Assembly: GCA_036785375.1 (NCBI GenBank)
Contig: JAWMAR010000070.1
Coordinates: 7,502,001 to 7,566,000, forward strand
DNA length: 64,000 bases
Origin: Leucoraja ocellata
Taxonomy: Eukaryota
Direction of reading: 5' to 3'
Position numbers and translations under genes: made by a program. Shown piece by piece: positions 19,645 to 63,307 of this stretch; the stretch's first letter is position 1; every line of letters starts with the position of its first letter. The notes below the pieces were generated by a model. It saw nothing but the letters and a program-made list of their open reading frames with translations, made no database searches and was not told where the DNA came from.

Positions 19645-22600
19645 TTAAGGCCAGTTGCAACATTTACAGGATAAATCGAAGACTAATCCAGTGGCACAGC
19701 TCTTCAGGTAGGTCCGACCATTGGCGCACTGGTAGAACTTGTTCTTGTCCTTGGGATCAGCGAAGGTACCGTTGGCTTTGCCCTTACAGAAGCCACTGCC
19801 TCCACCACCGCTGCTGCCACCACCGCTGCTGCCACCGCCTCCACCACCACTAGGGGCATCAGTAGGTGGGACCGCCGGCGCCAATGTTGTCTTGGATGGG
19901 ACGCAAGCTGCAAAGAAACACAGTTCGTTATAAGTTCATAAGCTCTCCTCAATTCATAGGAGAATTGGCCCATTGGGTTTACTCCACTATTCAATCATGG
20001 CTGGTCTATCACTCCCTCTCAACCCCATTCTCCTGCCTTCTCCCCATAAACCCTGACACCAGAACTAATCAAGAATCTGTCAATCTGAAATGCCCATTGA
20101 CTTGGCCTCCACATCCACCTTAGTTCAAGTTGAAACAAGAAACCGCAGATGCAAGTGTGAATATCGTGGTCAATGGGATTATGCCACTGAACCTCCCTCT
20201 CACCAACTCCAGCGGGTTCCTGACCTCCCATCTACCCCAGATGCTGGTCTATAAAAAGAGCCACAATGTGCTGGAGTAACAGTTGCTTGTTCTCTATACC
20301 CACCACCCTCTGTGTGGAAAACGTAGCTACATACCTAGTCCTACCACTATCTGCCTCCACCACCACCCCTGGTAGCGTGTTCCAGGCACCCACCACCCTC
20401 TGTGTGAAAGACTTGTCCCGCACATCTCCATTACCTCCAGAGATGCCAAGGCCAGAGTGCAGACTGTTGATGAGGGGGTAGGGTCCCTGGTGACAGAAGG
20501 CACCAGAGAAGTCATCCAGAGCCAGATCCCAGACCATAGCTCCTCCAAAGTTGTTCTTCTTCAGCCACGCAACCTGGAAGACACAGTTCACAACTTTACA
20601 CCAACATCCCTCAGTCAATAATGGCTTCTACAATGTGCTTTCTATCGGGATTCATCACAGCACGGTTTGGGAATGGCTCTATCCAAAACACGCAAGAAAT
20701 TGCAGCAAGTTGCTGACGCAGCCCAGACCATCAGGTAAACCAACCTCCCTTCCATTGACTCCATCTACACCTCACGCTGCCTCAGCAAGGCCACCCGCAT
20801 AATCGAGGACCAGTCTCGCCCAAGCACCAGAGAAATAAAAACAGAAATTCCACATTTCCTCGCTGTGAATCATTTCATGAGGGCAGCACGGTGGCGCAGC
20901 GGTAGAGCTGCTTTGCTGCCTCACAGCGCCAGAGACCCGCCAGAGATCCTGACTACAGGTGCTGTCTGTATGGAGTTTGTACGTTCTCCATGCGACCTGC
21001 GTGGGCTTTCTCCGGGTGCTCAGGTTTCCTCTCACACTCTAAAGACATACAGGTTTGTAGATTAATTGTCTTCGGTAAAATTCCTGGTGTGTGTAGTACA
21101 GTGCCCAGTGTGTGGGGATCGCTGGTCGGCCCGGACTCGATGGGCCGAAGGGCCTGTTTCCAGCTGTACCTCTAAACTATACTAAACTAAAGGTTACTCC
21201 CTGCCTTCCTCACACAGTCCCGCCCCCAATGGAAATATATAAAATCCCTAGAGAACAAATGTCAGATCCAAATCAAAAATGTCAATGTTTAAAGCACATT
21301 CTAAAGAGCATAGCATCAATTTTAACGGCGACTTAAACTTGTTTGAACTGCATAACAAAGCATGATCATCACTTAACATCCAATGGAAGGCACAGATCTA
21401 AGGCAAATGTGACTTACTTTATAAAATAGAAATAATAATTTTGTTCATAAGTGATAGGAGCAGAATTAGGCCATTCGGCCCATCAAGTCTACCCCGCCAT
21501 GGCTGATCTATCTCTCCCTCCTAACCCCATTCTCCTCCCTTCTCCCCATAACCCATGACACGCGAACACCATGAATTTATGGTGAGCTGGAAATTTTATG
21601 CAGAATGTTAACGACAAAAGATTCTAAGGATTTTGAAGCATAATTCTGGAGTTCACTGTTGGAAACTCTGCAGTAGATATTGAGATAAACGAGACCACGG
21701 TGGTTCACGCGGGAAGGGTGGAACTTCGATGGTCAGATGTACCTTGTCTCCGAAGCTCTTGACGTTGTCATAGCCGACCCATATTCCACTCTTGAAGGCG
21801 TACGGGGTGTCTTGTGGGGCGTTCCATTCGCTGGTGGCACCGTTCAGGAACCCGCAGATCTGCCCAGAGACGGAGATGTTAGGGACCAATCTTGTCGAGT
21901 TGGAAAAAATCATGAGAGGAACCGATCAGGTAAACGCAAACGCAGAGACGGCGAATCGAGAACCAGAGGACATGGGTGAGGGAGAAAGATTTAATAGGAA
22001 TGGTGCTGGCTTGAAGGGCCGAATGGCCTACTCCTGCACTTATTGTCTATTAAATCTGAGGGGTAACCATTTGACTCCAAGGGTGGTGGGTGGCGATAGT
22101 GACAAAGGCTGGAGGGGAACAGGAGACGAAATAGTGTCAGATACTGAGAGGAGAGGGCAAGAGAGATGTGGAGAGATGTGCAAAGAGAGGAGGAAAGAGG
22201 TGAGAGAGATATAGGTTAAGAGAAGGGAGAAAGACATGAAAGAGAAAGATAGAAAGAGGAGAGGAGAGAAAGATGTATAAAGAGCGATATGTCCAGAAAG
22301 TGGAGGAGAGAGATATAAAGCCGGAGGGAGGGATGTGGTGAGAAGGAGATAGTGGGGAGGGCAAAGATGAAGGGGAGGATAGAAGGGAAATGGGGATCTC
22401 TTGAGAGGAGGGGAACGGAGAACATGGGTGTGCGATGTTTCGGGTGGAGATCCTTCCTCAGGCTGCAGCACCTTGTGTCCATCTATGTTGTGTGTGGTTA
22501 TTCAGTATTGGATTGGAAGATAACATTGAGTAAAGAGCCACGCGGTTGGATTGGTCGGTAGGTACAGTACCTCATAGTAGGCCAGGAAGCCGGCTTGGCG

Positions 22601-25600
22601 GGTGAATTTGCCGGCTGGACCAGCGCCTCCTGCTGGGGCACCCACAGCCGTGCTGGACGAGGTCAGTCTGAATGTGTGTCCGTAGGTGGGGAAACCCACA
22701 TTCAACTTCTCCACTGGAGCCCCCTTGCTCTTCCAGTAGTTCATGGCGTATTCCTGCAGGGACACAGTTGGCATCAAAGGCTCATGTTTACGTTTAGGTT
22801 TATTATTATCACGTGTACCGAGGCACAGTCAAAAGTCTCCAAACAGATCAGATGATACCGTACATAAATACAATCAAATCAAACTCGGGTACAATAGGTA
22901 GAACAAAGGGGAAGATACAGAGTGAAGAATATAGTTCTCAGCATCGTAGCGCATCAGTTCCAGAGACAAAGTCCAATGTCCGCAATGGGGTAGAGGTGAA
23001 TCGGACAGTACCCTAGCTTATGGAAGGACCGTTCAGAAGCCTGATAGCAGAGGGGAAGGAGCTGTTCCTGAGTCTGGTGGTGCGCGCTTTCAAGCTTCTG
23101 TACCTTCTGCTAGACCAGGGAGAAGGAGAAATGACTGGGGTGGGACAAGTCTTTGTTCTGTTGGCTGCTTTTCTGAGGCAGCGTGAAGTGTAGATGGAGT
23201 TAATGGTGGGGAGTGTGGTCTGTGTGATGGACTGGGCTCCATCCACAACTCCCTGCAATTTCTTGTGGTCTTGGGCTAAGAGCTGTTCCCATACCTAGTT
23301 GTGATGCAACTCCACAGTCTGCTCCCCGTGGTGTATGGAACAGTTATATGGACTTGACAAAATGGGTTTATTAATTCGGAGAGAGGAGTTGAAAAAGTTG
23401 AGCAGGATTTATTTTTCTTGAGCACTTACCACATTGAAGTAGAGGTTGGTTGTATCCTGGTTATTAGGCAGGGGATAGAGGGGGCTGTTCTCTCCAGTAA
23501 CGTGGCTCCAGGGACCATAGAAATCGTAGGTCATCACGTTGAAGAAGTCAACTACCCTGCAAGAGAGGAGACGGGTCACCCTGATACTCCATGCACCAAA
23601 TTAACATCAGAATGCAGAACAGTACAACACAGGAACAGGCCCTTCTGCCCACAATGTCCGTGCCAAACATGACAAGATAAACTCATCTCCTCTGTCTACA
23701 CGTGATCCATATCCCTCCATTCTTTGTATATCTATAAGCCTCTTAAACACCACTATCGTATCTGCCTCCACCACCACCCCTGGCAGCGCGTTCCTGGCAC
23801 CCACCACTATCTCTGTAAAAAAAAAACATGCACATCTCCTTTAAACTTGAACATGATGCCAAGTCCATCACTTATCTACCTGCATATCACCAACATCCCT
23901 CCATGCCTGGCATGATCATGTGCCTATCTAAAGATCTTTTAAATGCCATTAACGTATCTGTTTCAACCACCACCCCAGCAGGTTCTGACTGTCTACACTA
24001 TCTATGCATCTAGTGATTTTATAAATTTCTATCAAGTCTCTCCTCAACCTCTGACGTTCCAGAGGAAACAATGTAAATTTGTCGAACCTCTCCCTGTAGC
24101 TAATCCCCTCTAATCCAGGCAGCGCTCTGGTAACTCTCCTCTGAACCGTCTCTAAAGCCTCCACATGCTTCCTGTAATGGAGACGACCAGACCTGCACGC
24201 AATGCTCTAAATGCCTCCTGGCTAAAGACCTACAGAGCTGCAAGTTGGCTTCCTGACTCTCACACTCAATGCCCCGACTGATGAAGGCATTGAATGCATT
24301 AGGGTTGTGGATGGATCTCAATCACCGTGCTGGAAGCTCCCACCATTGAAATTGTGGAGCCATGAAAAACTAGTTCAAATACGACGTCAAACTCGCTAAA
24401 TGCCCACAGGAAAAGTTGGGCTTCTTTGCATGTGGAAGGACACTCACTGGCCGAGCTGAGGAACCTCATAGCCAGTATCGATGTTGTTCTTCCCACCAGC
24501 AACGGCAGCCGAGAGCAGCAGTCGTGGCTTTCCTGCGCTTTTCCCTTCGGCCTCGAAGGCAGCCATCAGCTCCTGTGGGTCAGAGAGATCGAGGGCTCCT
24601 TTAGCAAGAGGTCAAGTCTAGTCTTAGAAAGGGTCCCGACCCGAAACATCGCCTATCCTCTTTCCTCAGAGATGCTGCCTGACCCGCTGAGTTACTCCAA
24701 CACTTTGTGTCAATTTCAATTTTAGTTTAGTTTAGTCTAGAGTAACTCAGCGGGTCAGGCAGCATCTGTGGAGAACATGGATAGGTGACGTTTCACAGAG
24801 TGCTGGAGTAACTCAGCGGGTCAGGCAGCATCTGTGGAGAACATGGATAGGTGACGTTTCACAGAGTGCTGGAGTAACTCAGCGGGTCAGGCAGCATCTG
24901 TGGAGAACATGGATAGGTGACGTTTCACAGAGTGCTGGAGGAACTCAGCGGGTCAGGCAGCATCTGTGGAGAACATGGATAGGTGACGTTTCACAGAGTG
25001 CTGGAGTAACTCAGCGGGTCAGGCAGCATCTGTGGAGAACATGGATAGGTGACGTTTCACAGAGTGCTGGAGTAACTCAGCGGGTCAGGCAGCATCTGTG
25101 GAGAACATGGATAGGTGACGTTTCACAGAGTGCTGGAGTAACTCAGCGGGTCAGGCAGCATCTGTGGAGATAAAGGATAGGTTTGGCCTGAGTTTGGCCC
25201 ATTTATTTTAAAGAAACTCATAGTGAGATGTACTTGACCGCACCTGAGCCAGGACAGTGTAGAGATGCTTGTCAACGGGAGGACTTCCTCGAGATCCAGG
25301 ATATTCCCAGTCGATGTCCAGACCGTCAAAGCCGTACCCTCTAAGGAAGGCGATGACTGACTTGATGAAGATTTGCCGAGTTCCTGATGAGGCGACCATC
25401 GCGGTGAATCTGCAGGAGGGATGGATGTGGGGAGAGGAGTTAGAAATTAAATGTGCCGGAGACACAAGGAACTGTAGTAACGGCCGCTGTACTCAGTGAC
25501 CCAGTGAATCTGCTGTTATATCCTATCATGTACAGATTCACCCTCGCCTTTATTAAATGTTCGTGGTTAAAAAATTACTCCTTTCTCCTGCTATTATCCC

Positions 25601-28600
25601 AAGTTTCATGTGAAATTATTATTTCTGAAAATGACGTTTAGTTCAGAGATATGGCGTGGAAACATGCCCTTCGGCCCCCCCCCACTCTGCACCGACCAGC
25701 GATCTTTGCTCACTAACACTATCCTACACACACAAGGGACAATTTACATTTATAACAAGCCAATTAACCTACAAATTTGTACGTCTTTGGAGTGTGGGAG
25801 CAAACTGAAGATCTCTGAGAAAACCCAGGAGGTCACAGCGAGAACGTACAAACTCCGTACAGACAGCACCCGTAGTCAGGATCGAACCTGGGTCTCTGGT
25901 GCTGTAAGCGCAATAAGGCAGCAACTCTACCGCTGTGCCACACACTATTGAAAGGATTCTTTCTGGAAATTATGTTCTTTTACTGTTTGGCAAGCAATAT
26001 CCTGCACTGTTCAAATTGCAAACTGCTCTGTTTAATAATATTCCTGAAACAGTTCACTGTAAAATTATCCCCTCAATATTTATCTCTGTGTATATCATTA
26101 CCAAACACACCCACTGTTCACGTCAGACACATGAAACTGCAGGTGCCGGTTTACTAAAAGAAAAGACACAAAGTGCTGGAGTAAATCAGCGGGTCAGGCA
26201 GCATCTCTGGAGAACATGGATAGGTGACGATTCTGGTCAAGATCCTTCTTCAGGCTGAGTTACTGAGGAGTTACTCCAGCACGTTGTGTCTTTCAATATT
26301 CATTCCATATCACAGTCAATTGGAAAATAACTTTTTTTAATCTAATGCTAACGTAAAAAGTTTCCATCTTACTTCTGGGTGCCAAAGTTCCAGCCTCCAA
26401 TGGACAGCAGAGTCTTGAGGTTTGCATTCCTTAAAAAAAATAGACAAAATGTGGTTTTGGAATGATGTTTAGAACAACAAAACATTTTTCAGAACTTCTC
26501 AGGAACTTCTGGATCTGTTTTTTTCGCCCCTTTGGTGTTACATTTAGTTGAGGGGATTTGCCTTAGTCTGGATCTCAAGGGGGTCACAGAAAATGAGGTG
26601 CAAGTTCATGCAACAAGGCTTCATAAGCAATGGGCCAGTCCCACTATGTGGGCTGAAGGGCCTATTTCCTCAATGATTCTGTTGGCCGGTCCAATAGCTT
26701 TCTCCTGAATATCCCCCTGGACCAAGTCACCTTTCAGACAGGGGAGGTGGATAAGATGAGAAAACCTTCAACAAATGGATGTGTAACAGGGTCATGTCAA
26801 AGACCCTGCTGACCATCGATCACCCATTCACACCAGTGCTATTTCATCCCACTTTCTCATCCACTCCCTATGCACTTGGGGCAAATTGTAGAGGCCAATT
26901 AATCTAGAAACCCTTTGGAATGTGGGAGAAAACCGGTAATCCAGAGAAAACCCTCACGGTCTTATGGCAAACGTGCAAACTCCACACAAACAGTGCCTGT
27001 GGCGTCGCGAGGCAGTGGCTCTACCCGCTGCGCCACTGTGCTGCCCGGTACTTACAACAGATGGAATCTTGCCACATACGCTTCCAAACGATAATAAACT
27101 AAACTAAACTAAATTAACTGTGGAATATGGATTTGGGGAATATCCAATACAGTGTCTGGTTAGCACACAACAAAAACCTTTCACTGTACCTCTGTACATG
27201 TGACAATGAACTAAACTGGACAATGTAAACATCGCAACAATGTCCGGCATTTGAGAAACAAGGTTAGTATTTATTCAGCAACTGTACTTGTTCTTCAGGC
27301 TGTTGATCTCCTTGTAGAGTTTTGGGTCGTTCCATTCGTAGGTGGCGATCTGGTTGCTCCTCATTCCAGCGAAGGCGTAGATGATGTGCGTGCAGAGGCA
27401 AGGGTCCACGCTCTGGGGCATGTATTTACCCTCTCCTGGTCTGTACTGTGCCCAGTTGGTGAAGTAACACACCAGCCTGTAGGCAGAGCCTGGGCAAGGG
27501 AGAGACAGGGTGGTCAGGACAATGTCTCAGTGGCACTCACACAAAGCAAAGCAAAGCAAGGCTGCAAATGCACAAAGACTCACCCAGTTGCAGGCAGGCC
27601 AGTAAAACCACCGCTGGAACAGAAAACAGAGAACAGCGTGTTAGGATTATGACAAACCGTAATAAATCAGGGGTTACGGCTGAACAATGGTCGGCATGGA
27701 CTCCGTGGGCCGAAGGGCCTTGTTTCCATACTGTATCTCTAAACTAAACCTTTCCTATCCCATGTACCTGTCCAAATTTCTTTTAAATGTTATTAAATGT
27801 TAAATGTCAACAAAATGGAGAGCGTACAGAGGAGATTTACTAGAATGTTGCCTGGGTTTCAGCAACTAAGTTACAGAGAAAGGTTGAACAAGTTAGGGCT
27901 TTATTCTTTGGAGCGCAGAAGGTTAAAGGGGGACTTGATAGAGGTTTTTAAAATGATGAGAGGGATAGACAGAGGTGACGTGGAAAAGCTTTTCCCACTG
28001 AGAGTAGGCAAGATTCAAACAAGGGGACATTACTTGAGAATTAAGGGACTGAAGTTTAGGGGTAACATGAGGGGGAACTTCTTTACTCAGAGAGTGGCGG
28101 CTGTGTGGAATGAGCTTCCAGTGAAGGTGGTGGAGGCAGGTTCGTTTTTATCATTTAAAAATAAATTGGATAGTTATATGGATGGGATGGGAATGGAAGG
28201 TTATGGTCTGAGCGCAGGTATATGGGACTAGGGGAGGATATGTGTTCGGCACGGACTAGAAGGGTCGAGATGGCCTGTTTCCGTGCTGTAATTGTTATAT
28301 GGTTATATGGTTATTATACTTGCCTCATCTACCTCCTCTGGCAGATCATTCCATATACTCACCACCCTCTGGGCAACAGGTTAGAGTCATAGTCACACAG
28401 CGCAGAAACAGGCCCTTTGGCCCAATTTGTCCATGCTGACCATCTAAGCTTGTGCCAGTTGCCCCTGGGTTCACCTTTAAATCTTTGCCCTCTCACCTTC
28501 AGTGTCAATGCCCCTGTAGTTTTAGACTCCCCTTCCCTGGAGAAAGGCAGAGACCATCCTTCATATCTCTGCCCCTCGTGACCTTCTAAACGTCTTAAGA

Positions 28601-29247
28601 AGTCAAACCTCAACCTCCATCACTCAGGGGGCTCCACTCCATTGCTAGTGTTGGGACTGAGGACTTGGCAAACCAGCACACACTGGGAGCAGAAGGTGGG
28701 GACACGGGAGAGTAGGAACATCATCTCCACAGAGTTCCAGCAACCTTCAACTGAAGATGGACACAGAGTGCTGGAGTAACTCAGCGGGTCAGGCAGCATC
28801 TGTGGAGAACATGGATAGGTGACGTTTCACAAAGTGCTGGAGTAACTCAGTGGGTCAGGCAGCATCTGTGGAGAACATGGATAGGTGACGTTTCACAGAG
28901 TGCTGGAGTAACTCAGTGGGTCAGGCAGCATCTGTGGAGAACATGGATAGGTGACGTTTCACAGAGTGCTGGAGCAACTCAGCGGGTCAGGCAGCATCTG
29001 TGGAGAACATGGATAGGTGACGTTTCACAAAGTGCTGGAGTAACTCAGCGGGTCAGGCAGCATCTCCAGAGATAAAGGTTAGATAGAGTCGAGACCCTTC
29101 AGACACCTTTATAATAAAACGTGAGAAACAATTTAACCTGTTCTCATCAATTAATGTCTAAACCTGATTCTTTCAAAAAGCATTCCAATATCAAAAGGAA
29201 TTAAACAACAAAAGGCTCTTACCTGTTCCAAGAAGTAGCTTTGCCAT
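19645..29247 (-). CDS. chia: Acidic-chitinase-like GH18 chitinase with Gly/Ser linker and one CBM14 (477 aa, 11 coding exons)
   Basis: Exons, all GT-AG with consistent phases: 29247-29223, 27613-27584, 27489-27288, 26429-26373, 25409-25244, 24572-24448, 23556-23430, 22753-22571, 21859-21743, 20573-20435, 19907-19645 (1434 nt). Motifs [46 protein letters not shown]. Confidence 0.95.
20885..21190 (+). mobile_element. tRNA-derived V-SINE (HE1-like), representative of many copies (e.g. 19135-19420, 25630-25945, 36560-36875, 49630-49910)
   Basis: A-box TGGCGCAGCGG, B-box-like region, central GGAGTTTGTACGTTCTCC domain, CR1-like tail GGGCCGAAGGGCCTGTTTC and (CTAAA)n end. Confidence 0.8.
24740..25170 (+). 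repeat. Tandem array of a 66-bp unit (~6.5 copies) in chia intron
   Basis: Unit AGTAACTCAGCGGGTCAGGCAGCATCTGTGGAGAACATGGATAGGTGACGTTTCACAGAGTGCTGG; copies nearly identical. Confidence 0.95.
27805..28310 (+). mobile_element. CR1-clade LINE 3' fragment (HER1-like); similar fragments at ~13120-13490, 29796-30329, 41468-41848, 46262-46680, 53150-53570
   Basis: ORF2 C-terminus [13 protein letters not shown]...[18 protein letters not shown]...RNFFTQRV..WN; microsatellite tails. Confidence 0.9.
28762..29066 (+). repeat. 66-bp tandem array (~4.5 copies); further arrays at ~30330-30760, 32766-33022, 35550-35720, 39690-39860, 40030-40250
   Basis: Same unit as 24740-25170. Confidence 0.9.
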
Positions 29248-47224: not shown

Positions 47225-50200
47225 ATGGTAAAGATCATCTTCTGCGCTGGTAAGAATGACATTCAACTATATATCTGAACAATCAGAAGCTCGGTTAATG
47301 GCCTTAAACCTTGCAAACATGATGGATTTTTTAATCAATTTCTTGAAGCATCCTGCACAACTCTAATCCTACCCAACCAATCACTACGAACAACACCTTG
47401 CGCTACTGTGGACTTGTTTTCTCATTGTGTATTGTTGCCCCAATGTCTTCAGATTTATTTTTCCAGTATTTTTATTTTTCACCATCTTGTAGAGTGCTCC
47501 AGTTTTCTCCCACATGCCAAAGATGTGCGGGTTTGCAGCTTAATCGGCCTTGGTATATTGTCCCTAGTTTGTGGGGAGCCGGTGCAAAAGTGGGAAAACA
47601 TAGAACTATTGCGAACCGTTGATCGATGGTCGGCGTGGACTCGGTGGGCCACAGAGTTTCCATGATATATCTTTCAATCCATTCAATTTATACCTCATTT
47701 ATGTGCAATTCATCTAATATTTATATATGTTTTCGTCTGTTGTCCGAGTCCAAGATTTTCTATATTTTGTTTCTATTATTTCAGTGGGATTCCTGCTGTT
47801 GTTACAAGCATACAATGGTAAGCAGCATGCACTGAATTTATCCCATATCAACACCATGAATATTTATGCCGTCATCGGTCAAAGTTAATCTAATCAGCTG
47901 TCGTTTGTTGCAGAGTGAAAATCTCAAATACAGGTGTTGATAGCAATTTACTGTAGATCACAGTGAATGGCGGTGCTAGCTCGAAGGGCCAAATGGCCTC
48001 CTCCTGCACCTATTTTCTATGTTTCTACGTTAATCATTGTACGAAAATACTTTCATTTATTGAGCACAATACTGGGGGTGGGAGATTGCAACCTTCACGT
48101 GGTCCGCCCTGTTTCGATTAATTCAATCAACCCGACGGGCACAATCAAATAAGATCAAATAGAACAAGTTGTCCGACAACTTTAGGCTGTGCACGCCATA
48201 TGCAAGGGGATGAAGAAGAAGCACAAAGGTACACAAAATTGCTGGAGAAACTCAGCGGGTGCAGCAGCATCTATGGAGTGAAGGAAATAGGCAACGTTTC
48301 TGGCCGAAACCCTTCTTCAGACTGAATTAAGAAGAAGCACAATACTGGAGAACACAGATAGGTGACGATTTGGTGTAAGATTATTTTTCGGAATGAGCTT
48401 TGAAGCTGGGTCTCGACCTATCCATGTTCTCCAGAAATGATGCCTGACCCGCTGGGTTACTCCAGCACTTTGTCTCTTTTTGTGTAAACCAGCATCTGCA
48501 GTTCTTTGTTTCTGCTTTCATTTACACAAAGGCTATCTGCCAGTAGGAAGTGCTTCCATTTCGAAGCTTCAAATGGGTTTTCTAATTGCATTTAATAAAA
48601 AATTCAACTGACAACTTTTTTGAAACCAGTTTTAAGCCAGGACTACAAGATAGTTTGTTACTACACAAACTGGGCACATAAACGAGGAAACTGCAAGTTC
48701 CTACCAGAAGATATCAACCCCAAGTTATGTACACATCTGATCTACGCCTTCGCTGTTATTGGCAAGAACCATGAAATGGTCCCACAGCAGACAGAGGATG
48801 AAAACCTCTATGAGTCGTTTAATAATCTGAAAAAACGGTACGTGAATTTACGAGACCTTGCAACGATTGTTAACTTAAATGTTTAATTCCACTGCAAATC
48901 TCTTCACAGGAAACTATCACAATCAGTTGAGTGCAGGGGGATGAGGGGTGATCTCATTGAGCTGGATAAGATTATGTGAGGAATAGAGATGCACAGAGTC
49001 TCTTGCCGCGAGTAGTGGAATCGAGGACCAGAGGACAAATGTTTAAAGTGAAGCGGGAAAGATTTAATAGGAAGCTGAGGGGTAACGTCCTCACACAAAG
49101 GGTGGTGGGTGTATAGAACAAGCTGCCAGAGGAGGTAGTTGAAGCAAGCACTATCCCAACATTTAAGAAGCAGTTGGACAGGTACATGGATAGGACAGGT
49201 TTAGAGGGATGTGGACAAAGTGTGGGCAGGTGGGACTAGTGTGGCTGGGACATGTTGGCTGGTGTGGGCAGTTTGGGCTGAAGGGTCTGTTTCCACACTG
49301 TATCACTCTATATCTATCTCACTTTTTGTTTAAATGAGGAATTGGTTTTCAAAATCTATGCAGGAAATTACCATCAGCTTAATATTAAATATATGTAGGA
49401 ACATATTGTACCGTGCAGAAATGAGTCTAAAATAATGAGAGGAAATCTCTCATGAGAAAGGTTTCGGTGGTAACCATTAAGTGTCCTGTTAAAACAGTTA
49501 AGAGTTCAATACTGAAACTAATTAGTTAGTGTTGACAAATAGAACTTTTTTTTTTCACAATTCACAATTGCATTAAACCACTGTGGATTTATTCATCTTT
49601 AGTCATTTCCAATTCCCAAGCCTCCTTTAGTTTAGTTTGGTTTAGAGATATAGCGTGGAAACAGGCCCTTCGGCCCACCGAGTCCGCACCGACCAGCAAT
49701 TCCCGCGCATTAAGACTACCTTACCTACACACACACTAGGGACAGTTTACACTTAAACCAAGCCAATTAACCTACAAACCTGTAAATCTTTGGAGTGCGG
49801 GAGGAAACCGAAGATCTCGAAGAAAACCCACGCAGGTCACGGGGAGAACATACAAACACCATGCAGACAGCACCCATAGTCAGGATCGAACCCGTGTCTC
49901 TGGAGCTGCAAAAATCTGTAAGACAGTGCGGCCCAAAATTCTGATTTATTCAATTACTTAAATTTAAATTTTGTACTGGCTCCAGTGGGACTTGAACTCA
50001 TATCCCTGGATCAATAATCCAGCTCCCAGTCCACTCATTTAACTGTTCTCCCCGTGACCATGTGGGTTTCCTCCTCGTGCTCCGGTTTCCTCCCACTCCA
50101 AAGACACGCAGGCTTGTAGATTGAAGTCGGGTTTCGGCCCGAAACGTTGCCTATTTCCTTCGCTCCATAGATGCTGCTGCACCCGCTGAGTTTCTCCAGC

Positions 50201-53200
50201 AATTTTGTGTACCTCAGGCTTGTAGATTAATTGGCTTCTATAAATTGTCCCCAGTGTGTGGGATAGAACAAGTGTACGGGGTGATCGTTGGTCTGAGCAG
50301 ACTCGGTGGGCCGTAGGGCCTGTTCCCACGCTATATCTCTAAAACTAAATAGATATGACGAATGTACAAATATGCAGTCTGTATGGACTCCATGTAGATG
50401 GGGTTTACATGTGTGCTTGTGTTATCCGTCTTAAATGGAATCTAAAAGAGTAACTTTACCCATCAGCGTGTTATTTATTGGGTAAAGGACATGGAAACTA
50501 GTTTCAGACGGAGGCTGTTCCAGCTACCTTGTGTTGTTACTTCACAGCACTTCAACGTGGGCTGGGCCATAGAAAGCACTTCAGAGAATTGTTGTACTGA
50601 CCTCCAAAAATGAAAAGTTGTTGATGGAGTCAGATTTATTTTTCTTGCCTTTGTGCTTTTTAAAAAATAAAATAATTTCCTCTGATTTCCACAGAAACCC
50701 AAACTTACGAACACTCTTATCCATTGGAGGCTGGAATTTCGGAACTGAAAAGTAAGGCTCTTTCTTGAATTAAATTTGAGAGAGAGCGCTGCCTTACAGC
50801 GCTGGACACACGGGTTCGATCCCGACTGAAAGTGTTGTCCATGTGGAGTTTGCACGTTCTCCATGTGACCATGTAGATTTTCTCCGGGGACTCCAGTTTT
50901 CTCCCACATCTCAAAGACATGTTGGATTAAAGGATAATCGGCCCCCTGTAAATTGCCCCTGGTGCGTAGGGAGTGGATGAGTAAGTGGGATCACATAGAA
51001 CTCGTGATCAATAATCGGCCTGGACTCGGTGGGCCGAGGGGACTCTTTCCATTTTAGTATCTCTAAATTAAACTGATGACTGGGTCACTGACCACAAGAA
51101 AATACAGAACTATCCCAGATTGTGTGCCAGTAGATATGTATGCAATCAAACCTGTCTGCTTAACTGAGTAAAAGAGTTTAATAGATCACACTGAACTTCC
51201 GAAGACAGATAAACCGGATGTTTATTTTTATCACATGTGATAAAATCCAATCATATCAGATAACAAATGAACGCATCTATCCATGTACATATTGGTTTAC
51301 AAAATTAATCCTTCAAAATGCCTGACTTTCATGGATTTGAAGTTTATTACATGGGTTTCTGTAATAAATGATCTGGAGTGAAACACAAAGCACTGGAGGA
51401 ACTCAGCAGGTCAGGCAGCATCTGTGGAGGAAATGGTCAAACAATTCACACAAATTCATTCATGTCATACACAAGTACTGCAAGAACATAAGACATTGGA
51501 GTAGAATTAGGCCATTCAGCCCATTGGGTGTGCAATAGTGATGGAAGGAACTGCAGATGCTGGTTTACAACGAAGATACACACAAAATGCTGGAGTAACT
51601 CAGCAGAACAGGCAGCATCTCTGGAGAGAAGGAATGGATGAGGTTTCAGGTCGAAACATCGCCCATTCCTTCTCTCCAGAGGTGCCGCCTGTGTTACTCC
51701 AGCTTTGTGTCTATCCATAGTTCGACAGGTTGAGCAAAGAGAAAAATACCAGGGTGCAGAATATAGTTTTTCAGCACTGAAACGTAACAGTTCCAGAGAA
51801 AAAGTCAACTGTAGCAATGAGGTAGGTTGGAAAATGGGGACAGTGCCCCAGCTTATGGAAGAAAATAAGATCAGAGTCTGGTAGTGCACCCTTTCAAGCT
51901 TCCATATCATCTGCCCGACATTCAAATTCGTACAATAGGTGGAGCTAAGGGGGAGATACAGAGTTCAGAATAGTTCTCAACATTGTAGCGCATCAGTTCC
52001 AGGGACAAAGTCCAATGTCCGCAATGGGGTTGAGATGAATCGGACAGTACTCTAGTTTATGAATGGACCATTCAGAAGCGTAATAACAGAGGGGAAGAAG
52101 CCGTTCCTGAGTCTGGGAGTGGTGATATGAGGGTTATATCACTGGTATATTTGGGTCACCTCAGTGGATAACCGGTGAATGGAAAATAACAACCACTAAA
52201 CCTCACTCCAGGGTCCCGACTCGAAACGTGGTCTGTCCATTTCCTCCACGGATGCTGCCAGACCCGCTGAGTTACTCCAGCACTTTGTGTTTCTCTCCAG
52301 ATCGTTTATTACAGAAATAAGAAACTTCAAATACTCAAAGTCTGGCATTTTGAAGGATTAGTTTTGTGGAATGGCAGTGTACCGAGCAGCCATCAGGGGC
52401 CGTGTGTGTTGTCAGGTGGGAATATTTCACTATTATCCATCTGCTGAGTTTGGAAAACTCAATTCTGAAAGGACTTGTAAAATTAAAAAAAGACACAAAG
52501 TGGCGAAGAAACTTAGCGAGTCTCTCAGCAACATGGAATGGTGATGTTTCGGGTTGGGATCCTTCTTCAGACGTTACAGTGGTGGGGGGGGGGGGGGGGA
52601 GCTGGATGAGGGTAGGGGGCATGACAAAGCCTGGCAAGTGCTAGGCAGGAAAATTCTGGAGTAATTCAGCGAGTCAGGAAGCATCTGAGGCGAATATGGA
52701 TGTGACATCTTGGATTGGACACTTCTACAGATGGATTGTTGTGAGGGGAGAGTTGGGGGCGAGTGATGGGTGGATACAGGTGAAGGCATCCAGGACAGAA
52801 AGGTCAATAGGGGATGAGAAGGGGAGTTAAAATGGTTAGCAACCAGGAACTCCAGCAGAGCCAAGAGTTCTAGTAAAAAATAAAACATCCTTCTCAGCCA
52901 TTTATCACAAGGCCAGAAGCTTTATGCATGAAGATTATGCTGACTACCTCCTTCCCAAACATATTTCATGTCAGGTTCACCGCCATGGTTTCCAGTAAAG
53001 AAACTCGCTTACTATTCATTACGTCTGCGATCGAGCTTCTGAGGAAAGCGGAGTTTGATGGTTTAGACCTGCACTGGGAGTTCCCCGGCTTTAACCGCAG
53101 CCCACACGAAGACAAGCAACGCTACACTGACTTGGTCCAGGTGAGTGTAGACTTGGTTTATACTCTCTAGAATTTAGAAGATTGAGAGGGGATCTTATAG

Positions 53201-56200
53201 AAACTTACAAAATTCTTAAGGGGTTGGACAGGCTAGATGCAGGAAGATTGTTCCGATGTTGGGGAAGTCCAGGACAAGGGGTCACAGCTTAAGGATAAAG
53301 GGGAAATCCTTTAAAACCGAGATGAGAAGAACTTTTTTCACACAGAGAGTGGTGAATCTCTGGAACTCTCTGCCACAGAGGGTAGTTGAGGCCAGTTCAT
53401 TGGCTATATTTAAGAGGGAGTTAGATGTGGCCCTTGTGGCTAAGGGGATCAGGGGGTATGGAGAATACGGGATACTGAGTTGGATGATCAGCCATGATCA
53501 TATTGAATGGCGGTGCAGGCTCGAAGGGCCGAATGGCCTACTCCTGCACCTAATTTCTATGTTTCTATGCGAGCTGAACGCATCACAAATCTCGAGACAC
53601 AAGGAACTTGTCTGGACAAAGTTTTTACACAGAGGGTGGTGGGTGCCTGCAACGTGCTGCCAGGGGTGGTGGTGGAGGCAGACACGGCAGTAACGTTCAA
53701 TAAAGAATCAGGAGTGAAACACAAAGTGCTGGAGTAACTCAGAGGGTCAGGCAGCGTCTGTGGAGGGAATGGACAGCCGACATTTCGGGTCGCCACCCAG
53801 AAGTGAGGTTGTAAAACGTTCAATTCATGACAGGCACGTGGATATGCTGGGAATGGTGGGATATGGATCACGTTCAGGCAGAGATTAGTTTAACTTGGTA
53901 TAGTGTCGGCACTGAAATACTGATAGATTTCCAAATGGAATCGGGATGCTAAAGAGTGGAGCAGTTTCCAAATGGAACAGAGAGTTTCTATATCCCCTTC
54001 ACTCAGATGGTGGTGGGCAAAGATTCTACAGCGAGCAAGGTCGACCACTCGACGAAAAAGATGTAGTACCGTCATGGGCAAATTCGTGGGTAATTTTCGG
54101 CCCCATTTCCGTAACCAGCTTCCGTCTCCGCACCAAAGATCCCGTAGCGGAGCAAAGATACTAGTGCGGAGATGGAAGCCGGTTACGGAAACATCCTCGT
54201 AAAAATAAAAGTTCTTTGGTAAAAATCTTCTCCTCATTTTCAGAATTTTAATTTATTAACACAAACTGTTCCTCCGCAACGTTGATTACACTGCGAGTCG
54301 GGTCGGGCCGGGTCGGGTCGGGTTACTGGAATGGATGAAAAGAAGGCCCACTTTCTGCTCCGTTGCATACTACATGTCAGCCCATTGCATTTAGCAGGAG
54401 TGGTCTATCTTGCTCCGCTATAGGATCATTGGTGGTGGGTATATGGAATGAGCTGCCAAAGGAGGTAGTTGAGGCAGGGACTATAACATTATTTAAAAGA
54501 TATTGGGAGAGGTACATGGCTAAAAAAGGTTTAGAGGGATGTAGGCGGAATGTGGGACCAGCGTAGATGGGGCATCTTAGTCGGCATGGGCAAGTTGGAC
54601 TGAAGGGCCTGTTTCCACAATGTCTGACTCTCCGACTCAGAGTGGAACTTCAGGGACAAACAGCAAAGAGTCACCCACACTTCGGCCCCATCTAGCCTTC
54701 TGCTCAGCTGAAACAAAGCATCTTTCCCAAGACCTTCGGCCTCTCCTTCACCCTGGGGCTGGCGTATTCCACAGGAAATAATGCAACCTAGTCATAATCA
54801 TTAATGATGAGAAACATTCCTATACATTCGCTCCTCTGTCACCAGGCAACTGAGCCATCCTCTCACCAGCTAGAGAGTGGTCCTGACCTCCCAACCTCCT
54901 CATTAGAGACCTTTGAACGATCTTTAATCGGACTTTACCTTGCAGTAGATGTTATGCCCTTGATCCTGTATCTGTACACTGTGGACGGCTTGATTTTAAT
55001 CACCTATAGTCTAATCAATGATTGGATAGCACAGAAAAACCACTTCATTGTACCTCAGTAAACATGACAATAATAAACTAAACCGTTTGAAATCTCAATT
55101 TCATTTTGGAAATCCATCCTTATTCCCATCTGTATCTGTTCTTGTGAATGGCTTGATTGGATTCAGGTACAGTGTTATGTAATTCAATGGAATAGTAATG
55201 ACCATGTTCTTGGTTCTTGGTTTCTTGGTCCTCCAAAATATTCCAGATGGAATTTAAACTGGAGGTGGTGAAGGGAGGGCTTAAGCCAGAAAGGGTTATT
55301 GGGAAGAAAGAGCTACTTTAAATGTAGTTGCATCTGGTTGGGTAACTATAGTTGGGTGGAGATTATTCCATGCTTTAATTGTGCGGGGGAAGAACGAATT
55401 GCTGTACCAACACATCTGTCTCTGTAGCTGGGATCACAAATTGGATCGAATGCCCTTGTCTGCTCCATGTTAATTATATATTCATTAAGTCCATGCCATT
55501 TGTAATCTGTCGTTCATCAGATATCATTGATGTAATCTGCCTGACAAACTCTTCACTATTTTATTAACTAATAGGAACTCCAGGAAGAATTTATAAAGGA
55601 ATCAAACGAGACCAACAAACCGCGATTGCTACTTTCTGCTGTTGTAGCATCTGGAATAAGAAACATTCAAGCAGGTTATGAAATAGAGAAGATTTCAGAG
55701 TACGTTGGGAGTTTATTTTGTACCTGGTGCGGCTTTAAGCTTTGAAGATGTTCATCGTAAAACTGAAAACAATGAGGAAAGACACAAAGTGATGGAGTAA
55801 ATCATCGGGTCAGGCAGCATCTCAAGAGAGCATGGATATGTTATGATTTGATCGAGACCCTTCCTCAGACTGATGAAGGATCCCATCCTGAAATGTCACC
55901 TATCCATGTTCACCACAGATGCTGCCCGACCTGCTGAGTGGCTCCAACACTGTCCTTGGTAAACCAGCATCTTCAGTTCCTTGTTTCTACTGAAAATAAT
56001 AACCACGGCTTTGAATAAGGGCCAAGGCGTTACAAAACTATCCAATGAACACTTCAAACTGGGCACGAGACACAAAGACATTTGCAACCAAGGAAAAATA
56101 ATTGAGAACAAACTTATCAGCCACTATGGTGGTAATATTAGTAATGCAAGAGGAGAGGGAGTGATGTGGTGAAAGGACCAGTGGAATGGAGACACAAGGA

Positions 56201-59200
56201 ACTGAAGCTGCTGCGATCTTGATTAAAACACAAAGTGCTGGAGGAAGTCAGCACATCAGGCAGCATCTGCGGAGGGAATAGATGTTTTGGGTCGAGACCC
56301 TTCTTCAAACCAGTGAACTGGTTGGGTTGGCAATAACTGGCTAGATGGATCTATACGGATCAATTACATTTTAATTTCCTATCACGTAAGATTGACCAGG
56401 AGAGCCAAGGAACTGCAGAAGCTGGAATCTTGAGCAAAACTGGAGGAACTCAGTTGGACAGACAGCATCTGTGGAGGGAATGGGCAAGCAATGTTTTGGG
56501 TTGGGACAGTCTGAAGAACATCATCTGTCCATCCCCTCTACAGACGCTGCCTGGCCCGCTGAGTGCCTCCAGCACTTATGTTTTGATGAAGATTGAAAGA
56601 TAACCGTGGTAAATGCTATTGTTAATCTTTGCAGCCGTGATATCAATGCCTGCAATAGCAACCTCCTTCAGTTCCATTCTCAACTAGCTGTTGTTTTTTG
56701 CAGACACATGGACTTCATCGGTGTGATGACCTACGAGTTCCATGGTCCATGGGATCTAAAAACTGGACCTAACAGTCCACTGTACAAGAGCTCTGATGAC
56801 TATAATGATGACAGATACTTCAATGTAGTATGTACTGACATCTTTCATGATTTCAATTTACATCCTTTCTCCAGTTCTCTAAAGTTTAGTTTAGTTTAGA
56901 GATACAGTGTGGGAGGTACAGTGAGGCCCATCAGATCGCCACGTCCATGCTGACTGGCGATACGCTAGTTCTAGCCTACACACGAAGGACAATTAACCTA
57001 CAAACCTGCACGTCTTTGGAATCTGGGAGAAAAACCACGCGGATAACATACGAACTCCACATAGACAGCACCCATAGTCAGGATCGAAACCGGGTCTCTG
57101 GTGCTGTCAGGCAGCAACTCTACCGTTGCGCTACTTTGCCAATGTACATTTGGGAACACAGAGAATGAATGAATGAACAAATACTTTATTGCCACATGAC
57201 AAGTCACAGTGAAGTTATTTGTTTCTGCATATGCCAGGTATGCAAAGAGTGGCCACATAAAGTGCAGCAACAAAGTATCCCGCCCCATGTCCTCCTTTGT
57301 TCTCTCCAAGATGCTGCAGTTGGAATGTGTGGTGGGATCGGGACAAAGCCTGGAAAGTGATAGGTGGATACAGTTGAGGGGAGGCTTATTGGTTACCACA
57401 TGGTTGGACAAAAGCCCAGACATGAAAAGACAAAAAGTGTGAGATAAGGAGATAAGCATAGAAGAGTCGCGAATTGTGAAGCCAGAGGAAGAAATATATT
57501 TGAAAGGGGAGAAGGAAGAGGAGAAATGGGTGTGTATCCAGGCGGGGCACAGGGAAGAGATGAGGTGGTGAAAAAAAGGGAATGGGTAGTTAGTAGACTA
57601 GTTACCTGAAATTGGAAGTCAATATTCATTGCATAGGGTTGGAAGATACCCAGGCAAAGTCAGTTCCGATGTAATCCTTTCTCGTAGGAGTTTGCAACAA
57701 ATTACTGGAAGCAAAATGGAGCTCCGGCAGAAAAGCTCTTGGTGGGATTCCCAACGTACGGACGGACATTTACTCTCTGCTCTGCCGACAACAAGCCTGG
57801 TTCTGCAGCGTGTGGACCTGGCACTCCGGGGAACTGCAGCAAAGCCGCTGGCATTTTAGCATACTCTGAGGTACGGTGTGACTGCAGTTTGACCCTACTA
57901 TGAAAGGGAATGCACTTCAATTATCACCACTAATTGCCACCATCACTAGCAATCGATACATTTGGCCCCTCTTGGAAATATGTAGATTTATCATAGCAAC
58001 ATCTGCATGAAAAGACATTTGGGCAGGTACATGGATAGGAAAGCTGGGAGGGATATGGGCCAAACGCGGGCAGGTGGGACTAGTGTAGTTGGGACATGTT
58101 GGTCGGCAGGGCAAGTTGGGCCAAAAGGGCCTGTTTCCACTCTATGATTTACTTATCACAGTGACACAGTTCTCATAGAATCATAATTACACAGCACAGA
58201 TACAGCCCTTTCAGCCCAACCTGCCTATGCCAACCAGAAGCCCCATCTACGCCAATCCTGCCTGCCCGCCTTTGGCCCATAACCCAGTAAACATTTCCTA
58301 TCCATGTACCTGTCCAAATGTCTTTGAAATCTTGTTATTGTGTCTGCCTCAACTACCTCCGCTGGCAATTTGTTTCATTTACCCACCACCCTGTGTGTGA
58401 ACAATTCCAAACCCTCTATCTTCTTCCATAAACCAATTGTGTATCCAGGGAGCAAGCTCACTCTGGCTTCCATGCGATCTAACCTTATAAAATGGAAATG
58501 TTATCATTATAAATTTACCAAAACAATTATCATAACAGTACCTCTCCACCATCGAAGGGATTGACAGGAGGCTTTGTCTCAAAAAACGCAGTCAGCATCA
58601 TCAGAAACTCTCATTTCACCCCTGCCGTCGGGAAGAAGGTACAGGAATCTGAAAAACCATGACTTCCAGGTTCAGGAACAGCTTCATCCCAACAAACATC
58701 AGGCTCTTGAACACTGCAACCACCGACTAAACTAAGAATAACATATTGTCTTGGTTACAGGAAATTTTTGCTTTTGTTTTTACACAAATATTGCCATTTT
58801 TTAGTTTATTATGTTATCTATGAGTACTGTGTTTACAGACCTGATATGTTTCTGCAAGTAAGAAGGGTCTCGACCCGAAAACATCACCTATCCATGTTCT
58901 ATAGAGATGCTGCCTGACCTGCTGAGTTCCTCCAGCACTCTCTGAAACGTCACCTATCCATGTTCTCCACAGATGCTGCCGGACCCGCTGAGTTACTCCA
59001 ACAAGCTGTGTCCTTTTTAGATTTTCATTGTTCCATTGTTGGTATTTATGAAAATTAAACACTCTTGAATCTTGAATGTCCAGTGAGGTGGAGATAAAAT
59101 AACAATTAGCAACAAAATAACCAGGAACCTTTACATCCTCCCTGTGGAATTCTAGTAATACATTTCCAAGGGGACACAGGCTGCATTTATGTAGCATCTT

Positions 59201-62200
59201 TCACTCACCGTGAAACACTTTGAAGCAATGATAAAGGTCTTTGCTATTATTACAGGTGTGTGACTTTTTGAAAGGAGCCCATAAAGAATGGATTGAGGAA
59301 CAGGAGATTCCATACGCATACAAAGATGATGAGTGGGTTTCTTATGACAATTTGAGGAGCTTTGAGAAGAAGGTATGTATTTTATTGGAACATTTATTGC
59401 ATGTTCCTGATATATCTTGTATAATGGATTGCACATGTGCAGTTTACATGGTCTCCTTTTAACTGTAGGGAATTCTTCCAAGTGCTCCATCTACACAGAA
59501 CAGCACAGCACCAGACCCTTCAGCCCACAATCTCCATGCTGGACATACCAAGTTAAACTCTCTCTGCCTGCACATTATTTTCCTCCCGTATCTGAAAAAT
59601 TGCTGCACGAGATGGATTGGCCACTGTAGTTAGCTCCCATATAGGTGGCAGGCAGGTGTGATCAGTATGCATGTGAGAGAATAGGTGACTCAATGGGCCA
59701 AATGGCCTTTTTTTTGTATGTCATGAGAAAACCAAGAGTAAATGAGTCCACCTGGGCTATATAATGTGCACGGCAGGTGGTTTCAGTTGGCCAAGATATT
59801 TATTTCTTGAGAATGTGAAAGCAAAACTAGTTTCAATGTTGATAACATTAAGTAATTCTCAAGAAATATATCCATCATTCTTGGACTTATGTTAAAAATT
59901 ATAATTTATCCAAATGTTTTTCTTTGCAAGGATTGAAAAAATGTGGCCATTTAATTATTGCTATACAGCAACGGGTGAACAGGTGAAACCCCTCACCTGT
60001 GTTCACCTATCACCATGTTCTGTCCTGCCCCTCATCTTTTCCCACTTTTGTTCCTGCCCCCCCCCCCCGTGCAATATGTCCGATTAAGGGTGCCTGACCG
60101 AAACGTCACCAGAGATGCTGCCTGACCCGCTGAGTTACTCCAGCACTTTGTGTCTTTCTTTAGTACAAAACAAGCATTTGTAGTTCCTTGTTATTGCCCT
60201 TTAAGAGGATGTTCCCACTGTGGCGGGAAGTTTTGTCTCAGGCAAGGTTAAACATAATTGCAGAAGCAAGGTCAGAAGATTGAAATCAACCATCCACTCG
60301 CTGAACATGTGGACTGGACATGTTTGTTACAGAGCCTCGTGAATTCATCCTTAATTTATGTAGTTTATGTATAAATTATGTTTTGTGCATTGCCTGAATC
60401 TATGTAACTGTGATGCTGCTGCAAACAAGATTTTCATTGTACCTCTACCTCACTGTATTTGTATCAGTATTGGTTAAATCTACCTGATCTCCTGGCTACC
60501 GCCTAAACCAGTCCGATTTCTCGGCTACTAAACATTTTAACCGCCCCTCCTCCCATTCCCACACTGACATTTCTGTCCTGGGCCTCCTCCATTGTCAGAG
60601 TGAGGCCCAGCACAAATTGGAGGAACAGCACCTCATATTTCGCTTGGACAGCTTTCACCCAGCGGTACGAACATTGACTTCTCTAACTTCAAGTAACCTT
60701 GCTTTCCCTCTTTCTCCATCCCTCCCTCTTCCCAGTTCTCTGACACTCTTACCGTCACCCATTCCTTCTCTCCAGAGATGCTGCCTGTCCCGCTGAGTTA
60801 CCGCAGCATTTTGTGTGTATCATTGGTTTATTATTAGATAGATACAAAATGCAGGAGTAACTCAGCAGGACAGACAGTATTTCTGGAGAGAAGGAATGGG
60901 TGACGTTTCGGACGTGTACTGAGATGCAGTGAAAAGCTTTGTTAATGTGACAATAAGCAGAACTCGACTTGACTATTTGATTTTAGAGATAACAGCACGG
61001 AAACAGGCCCTTCCACTCACCGGTTCCGCGCTGACCAACGATCACCCCGTACACTAGCGCTATCCTACACACTAAGGACAATTTTACAATTTACAGAAGG
61101 CAATTAACCTACATCCTTGGAGTGAGGAAACCAGAGCACCCAGAGAAATACCACACGGTCTCAGGGACAAGGTACAAACGCCTAACAAACAGCACCCGTG
61201 GTCAGGATCGATCCCGGCTCTCTGGTGCTATAAAGCAGCAACTCTACCATTGCACCATTTGCAGCCGTATTGCTTAGGTAATCGGACAGCAATCAAGAAC
61301 AATGTTTCTCTGGCAGTTTGTTTTGTGGCTTTTGGGGCTAATGTAAGCATCTAGAAACAAGGAACTGCAGGAACTCAAGGAACTGAACCTTGGGCTCCAT
61401 GTGACCTTGCATGGGGGTCGGTCTTGTAAATCTGCAGCTAAATATTAATTATTAAATAATCTGGATTAGCGAGATGATTTGCAATCTAGGCTACCTATTA
61501 AATGTTAAATTATTTTCAGGTGGAATGGTTGAAAAATAACAGCTTTGGGGGTGCAATGGTATGGACAATCGATATGGATGATTATGAAGGTACTTCCTGT
61601 AACCAAGGACAATTCCCCCTTATTAATAAACTCAAGGTTATGCTTTCGTCAGGTTCTGGACCCACGGATGAATCGTCAGGTAACTAAATTACATTTGCAT
61701 TTGCATTTCAAATCAAGATATTTACATTTTCTATCAAATATTTAAGCATTAATTATGCCATTATAATCATGCTGTCTACAAAACCTTTCTGGGTATGCAA
61801 TTTTGAAAATAATGGACATTTAATAAAATTAAAGAGTTTATTATAAGTTAATGCAGGAGGGAGACATGAGATGGAAGATCACAGCACTACAGGTGCTTGG
61901 AGTTCTGAAACAATAACAGAAAGTCGTCGCAGATCAGCTAGCATTTCAGATCTTGCTCCATTTATCAGAATCAGGAAAGAGACAAAACAAGAGAGGAGAC
62001 AAAATAAACTGCAGATGCTGGATTCTTGAGTAAGACAGAAAGTGCTGAAGGAACTCAGTGGGTCAGACAGCATCTGTGGGTCTGTCCATTCCCTCAACAG
62101 ATGCTGCCTGTCCCACTGAGTTACTCCCCAAAAAGGGAGAACACAAGTTAGTTTTCGGCAGAAGACAAGCTCGGAGAGAGATGGAAATATCTTGGCAACC

Positions 62201-63307
62201 AAATGAGTTAATACAGCAGTTTGAAGCACATTTTGCTTCCTTGTCAATATGGGCAATATTGTTAATAGGTAGGCTCTGGGATATGCACAACAAGCCCGGG
62301 GGAAGTGGGAGGTTCACTTGCTGTTCACGTTTAGAGATACAGCGTGGAAACAGACCCTTTGGCAAACAGAGTCCGAGCTGACCAGCGATCATCCTGTACA
62401 CTAGTTCTATGTCCTACACAATTAACCAACAAACCTGCATGTGGGAGGAAACTGGAGAGCCCAGAGGAACCTTAGTGTGAATGGGTGATCAGTGGTCGAC
62501 ATGGACTTGATGGGCCGAAGGGTCTGCTTCCATGATGTATCCTTCAATCAACAGTGGAAATCCCAAATCTTTTTTCCCCCACCTACATGTGGTAGTGTGG
62601 GAATTTCCTGCAGCTCCCGGAACACAGATTCAGACCAGGAGAGGCATCTTGAAACATTATCATCAGCGAGCTTTGCACCATCATCATGCCGATAATGGAT
62701 TAAGGTTACGCGTGAAGATATTGGTGTAGAGTTAATCATGTTGCTGTTCGTACTTTCAGAGACAACACCACTGTCCATTTGTTCATCAGATTCACAGGTA
62801 TCCGACCCCTGCCCCAATCTGGAATTTTGCGGAGGTAAAAAGGATGGTAACTATGCAGTGGAGTGTACTGCGGACAGTTTCTATCAGTGTACCAACAACG
62901 ACACCGAGATTCTAACGTGCTCCAGAGGTACTTCATACAACGCGGGCAGAGACAAATGTGTCTGGCCACCCAGGTTAATTCCAGCCATCAATTTGGCAGA
63001 CAGTAACTTTTGCAAAACCAAGCTCGACGGTGCATATGCAATCCCGGTTCCCTCGTACTACAAATGCAAAGCTGGGCAGATGCGCGTGAAGAAGTGCTCC
63101 TCTGATCTACTCTACGATGCAGTCAGCAAGAAATGCATCAGTGCAAACACATTTAGCGACTACGATGTGTCCTTCTGCAGTAGTAATGAAGATGGGACCT
63201 ATCCCATCCTTGGCAGACCAAACAAATACTATCACTGCCTGAATAAGGATACCAATGTAGGGAGCTGTCCCAAGGGGAGCTTCTACAATAATTTCTGTAA
63301 ATGCTGA
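47225..63307 (+). CDS. GH18 chitinase-like protein with DxxDxHxE motif and three CBM14-like repeats (~581 aa, 11 coding exons)
   Basis: Exons: 47225-47249, 47785-47817, 48630-48837, 50695-50751, 52975-53140, 55575-55699, 56704-56827, 57688-57870, 59256-59372, 61520-61679, 62760 (or 62790)-63307. GT-AG, same phases as chia, open throughout; AATAAA 63331-63336. Confidence 0.92.
54018..54431. mobile_element. MITE with 8-bp TSD (hAT- or P-superfamily) inserted in a CR1 fragment
   Basis: Imperfect ~33-bp TIRs CAAAGATTCTACAGCG.../...CGCTATAGGATCATTG; GTGGTGGG at 54010-17 and 54432-39. Confidence 0.75.
55205..55410 (-). mobile_element. 3' end of a non-LTR retrotransposon (CR1-group, Crack/Daphne-like)
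   Basis: Minus strand encodes YSNSFFPRTIKAWNNL...FK then a short tandem (CAAGAAC-like) tail. Confidence 0.6.

Follow-up and report, generated by a model that had tools for sequence, protein, structure and literature searches.

Leucoraja ocellata carries a GH18 gene in which His replaces the second Asp of the DxDxE catalytic motif and Glu replaces the Asp of the MTYD motif, and both replacements recur throughout the sharks and rays in which we find the gene, as D136-H138-E140 and E213 are present in 24/24 orthologue rows. On balance the product is probably a secreted chitin-binding protein (chi-lectin) with little or no hydrolysis, judging from its sequence. Against that reading, the coupling of His, not a small residue, to D213E looks more like the product of selection for one particular geometry than like decay. 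The gene (hereafter the His gene) lies in the stretch of DNA analysed here, the 64,000 nucleotides of contig JAWMAR010000070.1 from position 7,502,001 to 7,566,000 (the window). Residue numbers of the type D136, H138, E140 and E213 are those of human CHIT1/AMCase, mapped by alignment, and His141, Glu143 and Glu216 are window numbering; subsite roles given with no paper cited are general knowledge of GH18 proteins.

The His gene consists of 11 exons between 47225 and 63307 on the plus strand (Table 1), joined AG/GT throughout into one 1746-nt frame that encodes 581 aa and has its sole stop at the end, and the protein is laid out as a GH18 domain, a linker and three CBM14 modules. Positions 53054-53083 translate as FDGLDLHWEF, with the His codon CAC at 53072-53074 and the Glu codon GAG at 53078-53080, and MTYE lies at 56726-56737, its Glu codon GAG at 56735-56737. 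An earlier, sequence-only reading of this DNA had proposed the Asp-to-His change with the Glu retained, the change of MTYD to MTYE, the retention of the NW, GGW and MVW aromatics and a set of 11 open exons, and the spliced translation bears out each of these. The adjoining chia does keep the Asp and MTYD, as that reading had it, when read on the minus strand, where its catalytic strand is [11 protein letters not shown]; the two proteins are 53% identical across the GH18 domain. Our analysis adds that Y34, W71 and E297 have gone, that four cysteines are new and that the protein ends in a tail of three CBM14 modules. Arrays of a 66-bp tandem repeat, kin to a dispersed repeat, lie in introns and between both genes (24600-25200, 28750-29080, 30300-30760 and 40040-40240).

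Table 1. Exons of the His gene, its canonical neighbour and the altered paralogues (window positions unless a genome coordinate is given)
Feature	Position	Strand	Content
Exon 1	47225..47249	+	ATG and signal-peptide-like N-terminal start; agrees with the N-terminus of skate orthologue P0009
Exon 2	47785..47817	+	Likely signal peptide, hydrophobic core (called by eye)
Exon 3	48630..48837	+	CYYTNW (Y27, W31 retained); Y34 to Lys; new invariant Cys41; W71 to non-aromatic
Exon 4	50695..50751	+	SIGGWN (W99, N100 retained)
Exon 5	52975..53140	+	Catalytic strand FDGLDLHWEFP; His141 = D138, Glu143 = E140; invariant Arg149
Exon 6	55575..55699	+	Splice-joined frame
Exon 7	56704..56827	+	MTYE, Glu216 = D213; M210, Y212, W218 retained
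Exon 8	57688..57870	+	Y267, R269 retained; E297 to Ala; new invariant Cys277, Cys288, Cys296
Exon 9	59256..59372	+	Splice-joined frame
Exon 10	61520..61679	+	GAMVW (W358 retained); linker begins
Exon 11	62760..63307	+	Rest of linker, three CBM14, TGA; AATAAA about 22 nt further 3'
Canonical chia (comparator)	19646..29247	-	DIDWE, MTYD, one CBM14; head-to-head with the His gene
Altered paralogues DLDWQ, DLVWE (two), DLDWA, ELDWE, DVAWH	L003, L004, L005, L011, L020, L021 (G000:C70 6.98-7.96 Mb)		

A second copy of the His gene lies about 253 kb away (G000:C70:7296276-7312431, loci L013-L016), with 11 exons and identical motif codons. The copies differ at six exonic positions, of which four are synonymous changes in the GH18 domain, where there are no non-synonymous ones, and two are non-synonymous changes in the linker. 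Whether the second copy is a recent segmental duplication or an unmerged haplotype cannot be told, because the DNA flanking and within the introns of both copies is 93-99% identical. An inverted block lies upstream of the second copy. Contigs from runs X3, X6 and X8, each of another organism and another study, cover 52900-53145; they show 1, 9 and 5 differences there, respectively, and none within 53054-53083. Three named skate proteins match the window protein at 99.3%, 96.9% and 94.0% identity. GAC at the altered codon, which the sequence-only reading had named as the mark of an error or a private variant, was found neither in these contigs nor in the orthologues, all of which keep His. Sequencing error or a private allele is thus ruled out by the second copy, the three contigs and the His and Glu of all orthologue rows, and a pseudogene by the intact frame in both copies, the lack of non-synonymous GH18 differences between them and a constraint equalling that on chia. 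As for RNA of this species, run X24 gave zero depth on exon 5 in a sampling of about 5% of the run; on the last exon X22 has 2 reads, X23 has 1 and X24 has 3, in samples of 1-5% of these runs (the X24 depth running into the intron), and run X20 adds a single 68-nt contig piece, numbers too small to bear on expression.

The domain score and the predicted TIM-barrel fold place the window protein in the GH18 family. Orthologue P0009, which is 97% identical to it, scores 328 bits against PF00704 (cut-off 29.6), and the AlphaFold model of this skate protein has a mean pLDDT of 77.9. Using this model as a Foldseek query, we found CHIT1/AMCase as top matches (E about 1e-53), with an rmsd of 1.8-1.9 A on the best catalytic-domain matches; atlas searches returned only generic chitinase and CBM14 clusters. 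By Pfam, four orthologues and the last exon of the window gene each carry three CBM14 stretches, compared with one in chia. Module 1 has six Cys and a C-terminal Trp; module 2, with four Cys, and module 3, with five, both lack this Trp, which chia has. Trivalent chitin binding would therefore not be assured, as modules 2 and 3 are without the terminal Trp and short of cysteines.

The 24 orthologue rows, one per source, comprise the window, 22 shark and ray species and the transcript-sized contig P0287. They were recovered from skates, an electric ray, a sawfish, stingrays, devil rays and sharks belonging to six orders. P0287 holds a complete 586-aa frame on a 1980-nt contig and is probably a spliced transcript, because the His gene covers 16 kb in the window. 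Word-limited searches returned no orthologue outside elasmobranchs among the 120 matches listed of 294, nor among 11 tail matches, and they gave no chimaera sequence. The DxxDxDxE and MxYD of the active CHIT1/CHIA type are absent from the clade, with DxxDxHxE and MxYE in their place in every row, and the 107 non-clade rows have neither His138 nor Glu213 (0 of each), 106 of them being Asp/Asp and one Asn138/Asp213. D213E is likewise found in 0/105 canonical rows and in 0/53 motifs of the exhaustive-search set. The residues C41, H67, H141, R149, S189, E216 and C296 (window numbering) never vary in the clade and set it apart from the 105 canonical rows; for Asp138 to His this contrast holds by construction, since the canonical rows were picked for Asp138 (the single Asn138 row excluded), and for the others it does not. 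C277 and C288 are also in 24/24 rows and are missing in six controls, so that four new cysteines, Cys41, Cys277, Cys288 and Cys296, are fixed clade-wide.

Much of the remaining cleft is conserved. D136, E140, Y27, W99, M210, Y212, R269 and W358 are present in every clade row, and W31, N100, W218 and Y267 are retained in the clade as well; the sugar-stacking aromatics W31, W99, W218 and W358 are in all rows, while Y34 and W71, together with E297, have been lost across the clade. GH18 identity between skate and shark is 82% for the His gene compared with 81% for chia. At position 183 (A183) sharks have Ala and most batoids have Val, and one stingray orthologue has D133N. Orthologues of the sawfish and stingray lineages (P0022, P0027, P0293-P0297) show added changes near W31 (CYYPNWAN) and L362 as Gln or Leu, possibly a second round of change. 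Some RefSeq isoforms of the orthologue (P0001, P0014 and others) omit exon 8 or exon 4, which would disrupt the GH18 fold.

In a tree of 39 rows, of which 14 are His rows and none are mammalian chi-lectins, the His rows form a single clade (support 100/100), whose stem measures 0.5 changes per site and whose crown branches are short. The 13-row CHIA clade (100/99) includes shark and skate chia and leaves the His gene outside, so the His gene does not group with AMCase. As to an affinity with CHIT1 or CHIO, what the tree gives for the His clade is a link to a coelacanth protein, supported at just 82/79 within an open polytomy. The monophyly, the long stem and the position outside CHIA indicate an ancient paralogue and not a recent copy of the adjoining chia, an origin also ruled out by the 53% identity. 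The branch lengths and identities point to a single episode of rapid change along the clade's stem, followed by constraint that appears as strong as that on a working enzyme.

Altered catalytic motifs are a repeated theme in the surrounding cluster. The genome has 17 catalytic exons, 16 of them on the contig of the window; canonical DxDxE stands in 9 and an altered motif in the other 8 (DLHWE and DLVWE twice each, DLDWQ, DLDWA, DVAWH and ELDWE once each). Since 8/17 catalytic exons are non-canonical, drift of the pseudoenzyme type is common in the cluster, and the altered paralogues are possible further chi-lectins; among the cluster's altered genes, the cross-species conservation result covers the His gene. 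The canonical chia exists as four near-identical copies (window 19646-29247; L006-L009) with 95-98% DNA identity and alternating orientation, and a related canonical gene has three more copies in L018, L019 and L022.

Loss of the second Asp with the Glu kept is not rare in the GH18 family, as far as its motifs can tell. An exhaustive search gave 848 matches, and the 150 listed, minus 3 orthologues, left 147 representatives with 192 motifs. Among these listed matches 144/192 motifs are canonical, 6/192 have His at 138, 9/192 are DxAxE and 2/192 are DxVxE. The other His138 domains, from two insects, a snail, a fish fragment and two newts, all (6/6) have more damage, at W99, D136, E140, M210 or Y212. 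Fish-type GH18 proteins with DLAWE or DLVWE (P0131 from pike, P0186 from mudminnow, and P0172 and P0189) show loss of the Asp with the Glu kept outside elasmobranchs.

What, then, does the product do? The sequence-only reading had offered a chi-lectin or an altered enzyme, which is the right pair of alternatives, but sequence cannot settle which of the two applies. The Asp138 of mouse AMCase flips away from Asp136 towards Glu140 and then forms hydrogen bonds with Glu140 and with the amide nitrogen of the -1 sugar (PMC11182645). His138, paired with D136 as an imidazolium-carboxylate, would neither perform this flip nor stabilise the oxazolinium, while W31, W99, W218, W358, Y212 and E140 would still grip a few GlcNAc units. 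The cleft and the CBM14 tail would together hold chitin in place or cover it, whether that chitin is made by the animal itself or comes from its prey and parasites. The new cysteines probably pair into two additional disulfides, which would make the cleft more rigid. The chi-lectin reading is supported by the other His138 domains, because His at this position usually accompanies a dead site, and also by the invariant His and Glu213, the conservation level, the long stem, the full support for the clade, the three CBM14 stretches and the frequency of non-canonical catalytic exons in the cluster. However, the elasmobranch clade is without the further damage of those domains and keeps its core residues in all rows. 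Two plant precedents are reported to lack chitinase activity, narbonin, with DXHXE and the Glu kept (PMC11915627), and XAIP-II, with His124/Glu126/Tyr182 (PMC2998507). These precedents are weakened because the inactivity has other proposed causes, a Glu132-Arg87 salt bridge in narbonin (PMC3662789) and a blocked channel in XAIP-II (PMC2998507), and both are reported to carry other defects besides DxHxE (PMC3662789, PMC2998507, PMC6904773). Asp to Ala at this position is reported to bring activity down to 37% and 19% in crude-lysate assays of two Listeria GH18 enzymes (PMC7334433), which agrees with the chi-lectin reading, although these mutants are not dead.

An altered enzyme in the broad sense, whether by a shift in pH dependence, as a transglycosylase, with His as a base or on another substrate, has a chance that we put a little short of even, and it stays in play because the clade retains every other core catalytic residue. 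Its main form, an active enzyme with a rewired triad, seems to us rather unlikely; it would turn its substrate over more slowly, work best at a different pH or favour transglycosylation over hydrolysis, as a chitin remodeller. A neutral His could donate to Glu140 and accept from the acetamido N-H, so that Asp136-His138 would act as a base dyad, with Glu213 repositioning the -1/+1 sugars or water, although this geometry is our own reasoning. The invariance of the other core catalytic residues, the constraint equal to that on chia and the close fit of the predicted fold to AMCase/CHIT1 are all consistent with activity; the invariant Glu is weak evidence of catalysis, because 198/370 GH18 positions are invariant within the clade. 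Asn at the second Asp in Serratia ChiA-D313N and ChiB-D142N is reported to lower Km and to raise transglycosylation (PMC5505975). Furthermore, human chi-lectins are described as inactive via changes in the catalytic motif (PMC12042104) and OVGP1 as having lost the catalytic Glu (PMC6904773), which the elasmobranch clade has. Against activity, our literature searches found no active DxHxE GH18 protein, and the two published cases described above are reported as inactive. The fullest version, a natural active Asp-His-Glu GH18 enzyme dating from the shark-ray ancestor, with His as base and a co-adapted Glu213, working at neutral pH as a transglycosylase or remodeller of the animal's own chitin and held there by its triple CBM14 tail, we think decidedly unlikely.

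A site rebuilt for another ligand, such as the chitobiose core of N-glycans, another GlcNAc glycan or a protein partner, with the CBM14 tail as an anchor to chitin, appears very unlikely. It would account for the clade-wide loss of Y34, W71 and E297 in the distal cleft and the gain of Arg149 and four Cys, and the narbonin-like GH18 proteins XIP-I and XAIP are reported to have turned into protein inhibitors (PMC3662789, PMC2998507), but the core stacking tryptophans are in all rows. That the gene encodes an ordinary chitinase in which the substitutions are neutral is scarcely credible: the gene is intact, conserved and labelled as a chitinase, but such names are automatic, Asp stands at both sites in all non-clade rows save the one with Asn138, and the structural role of Asp138 is established (PMC11182645).

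If the product is a chi-lectin, cartilaginous fishes would have evolved and kept their own by a route unlike that of mammals, and it would be a candidate organiser or sensor of vertebrate chitin. Published work places such chitin in fish gut and in the ampullae of Lorenzini (PMC10234404, PMC8379299), with no known role there according to one of these reports (PMC10234404), and the ampullary-gel paper (PMC8379299) makes no mention of a chitinase. If the product is active, it would offer a natural test of the second Asp of DxDxE and a His-based variant of substrate-assisted catalysis. The automatic database name 'acidic mammalian chitinase-like', applied in some twenty genomes, conceals the change in the active site. 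Repeated origins of chi-lectins and the DxHxE of plants were known before, and what we did not find in print is a vertebrate clade that conserves D138H coupled to D213E together with a triple CBM14 tail; our searches, which covered mainly open-access full text, returned no literature on this clade.

Compared with known systems, the His gene is closest in plan to the vertebrate CHIT1, AMCase (CHIA) and CHIO-type enzymes, which it resembles in fold, exon structure, D136, E140, Y212, W99 and W358 and in 52-57% GH18 identity, and from which it differs by D138H, D213E, the loss of Y34/W71/E297, four added Cys and three CBM14 modules in place of one. The mammalian chi-lectins (CHI3L1/YKL-40, CHI3L2/YKL-39, Ym1/Ym2 and OVGP1) are structural matches that share the GH18 fold and an altered motif; of the binding aromatics, the elasmobranch protein keeps W31, W99, W218 and W358 but not Y34 and W71. 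CHI3L1/YKL-40, CHI3L2/YKL-39 and Ym1/Ym2 have lost the catalytic Glu, and mammalian chi-lectins are not known to carry a CBM14 and mostly retain D213, whereas the elasmobranch protein keeps Glu140 throughout, alters D213 and carries three CBM14. This different substitution fits an elasmobranch origin independent of the mammalian chi-lectins, none of which is in our tree. Narbonin and XAIP-II are alike in having His at the second Asp with the Glu kept but belong to distant plant subfamilies that lack CBM14, and their DxHxE would have arisen independently of the elasmobranch one. The Serratia ChiA-D313N and ChiB-D142N mutants, finally, also place a non-acidic residue at the second Asp with the Glu kept, but there the residue is Asn, the change was made in the laboratory and it is not paired with a change of Asp to Glu.
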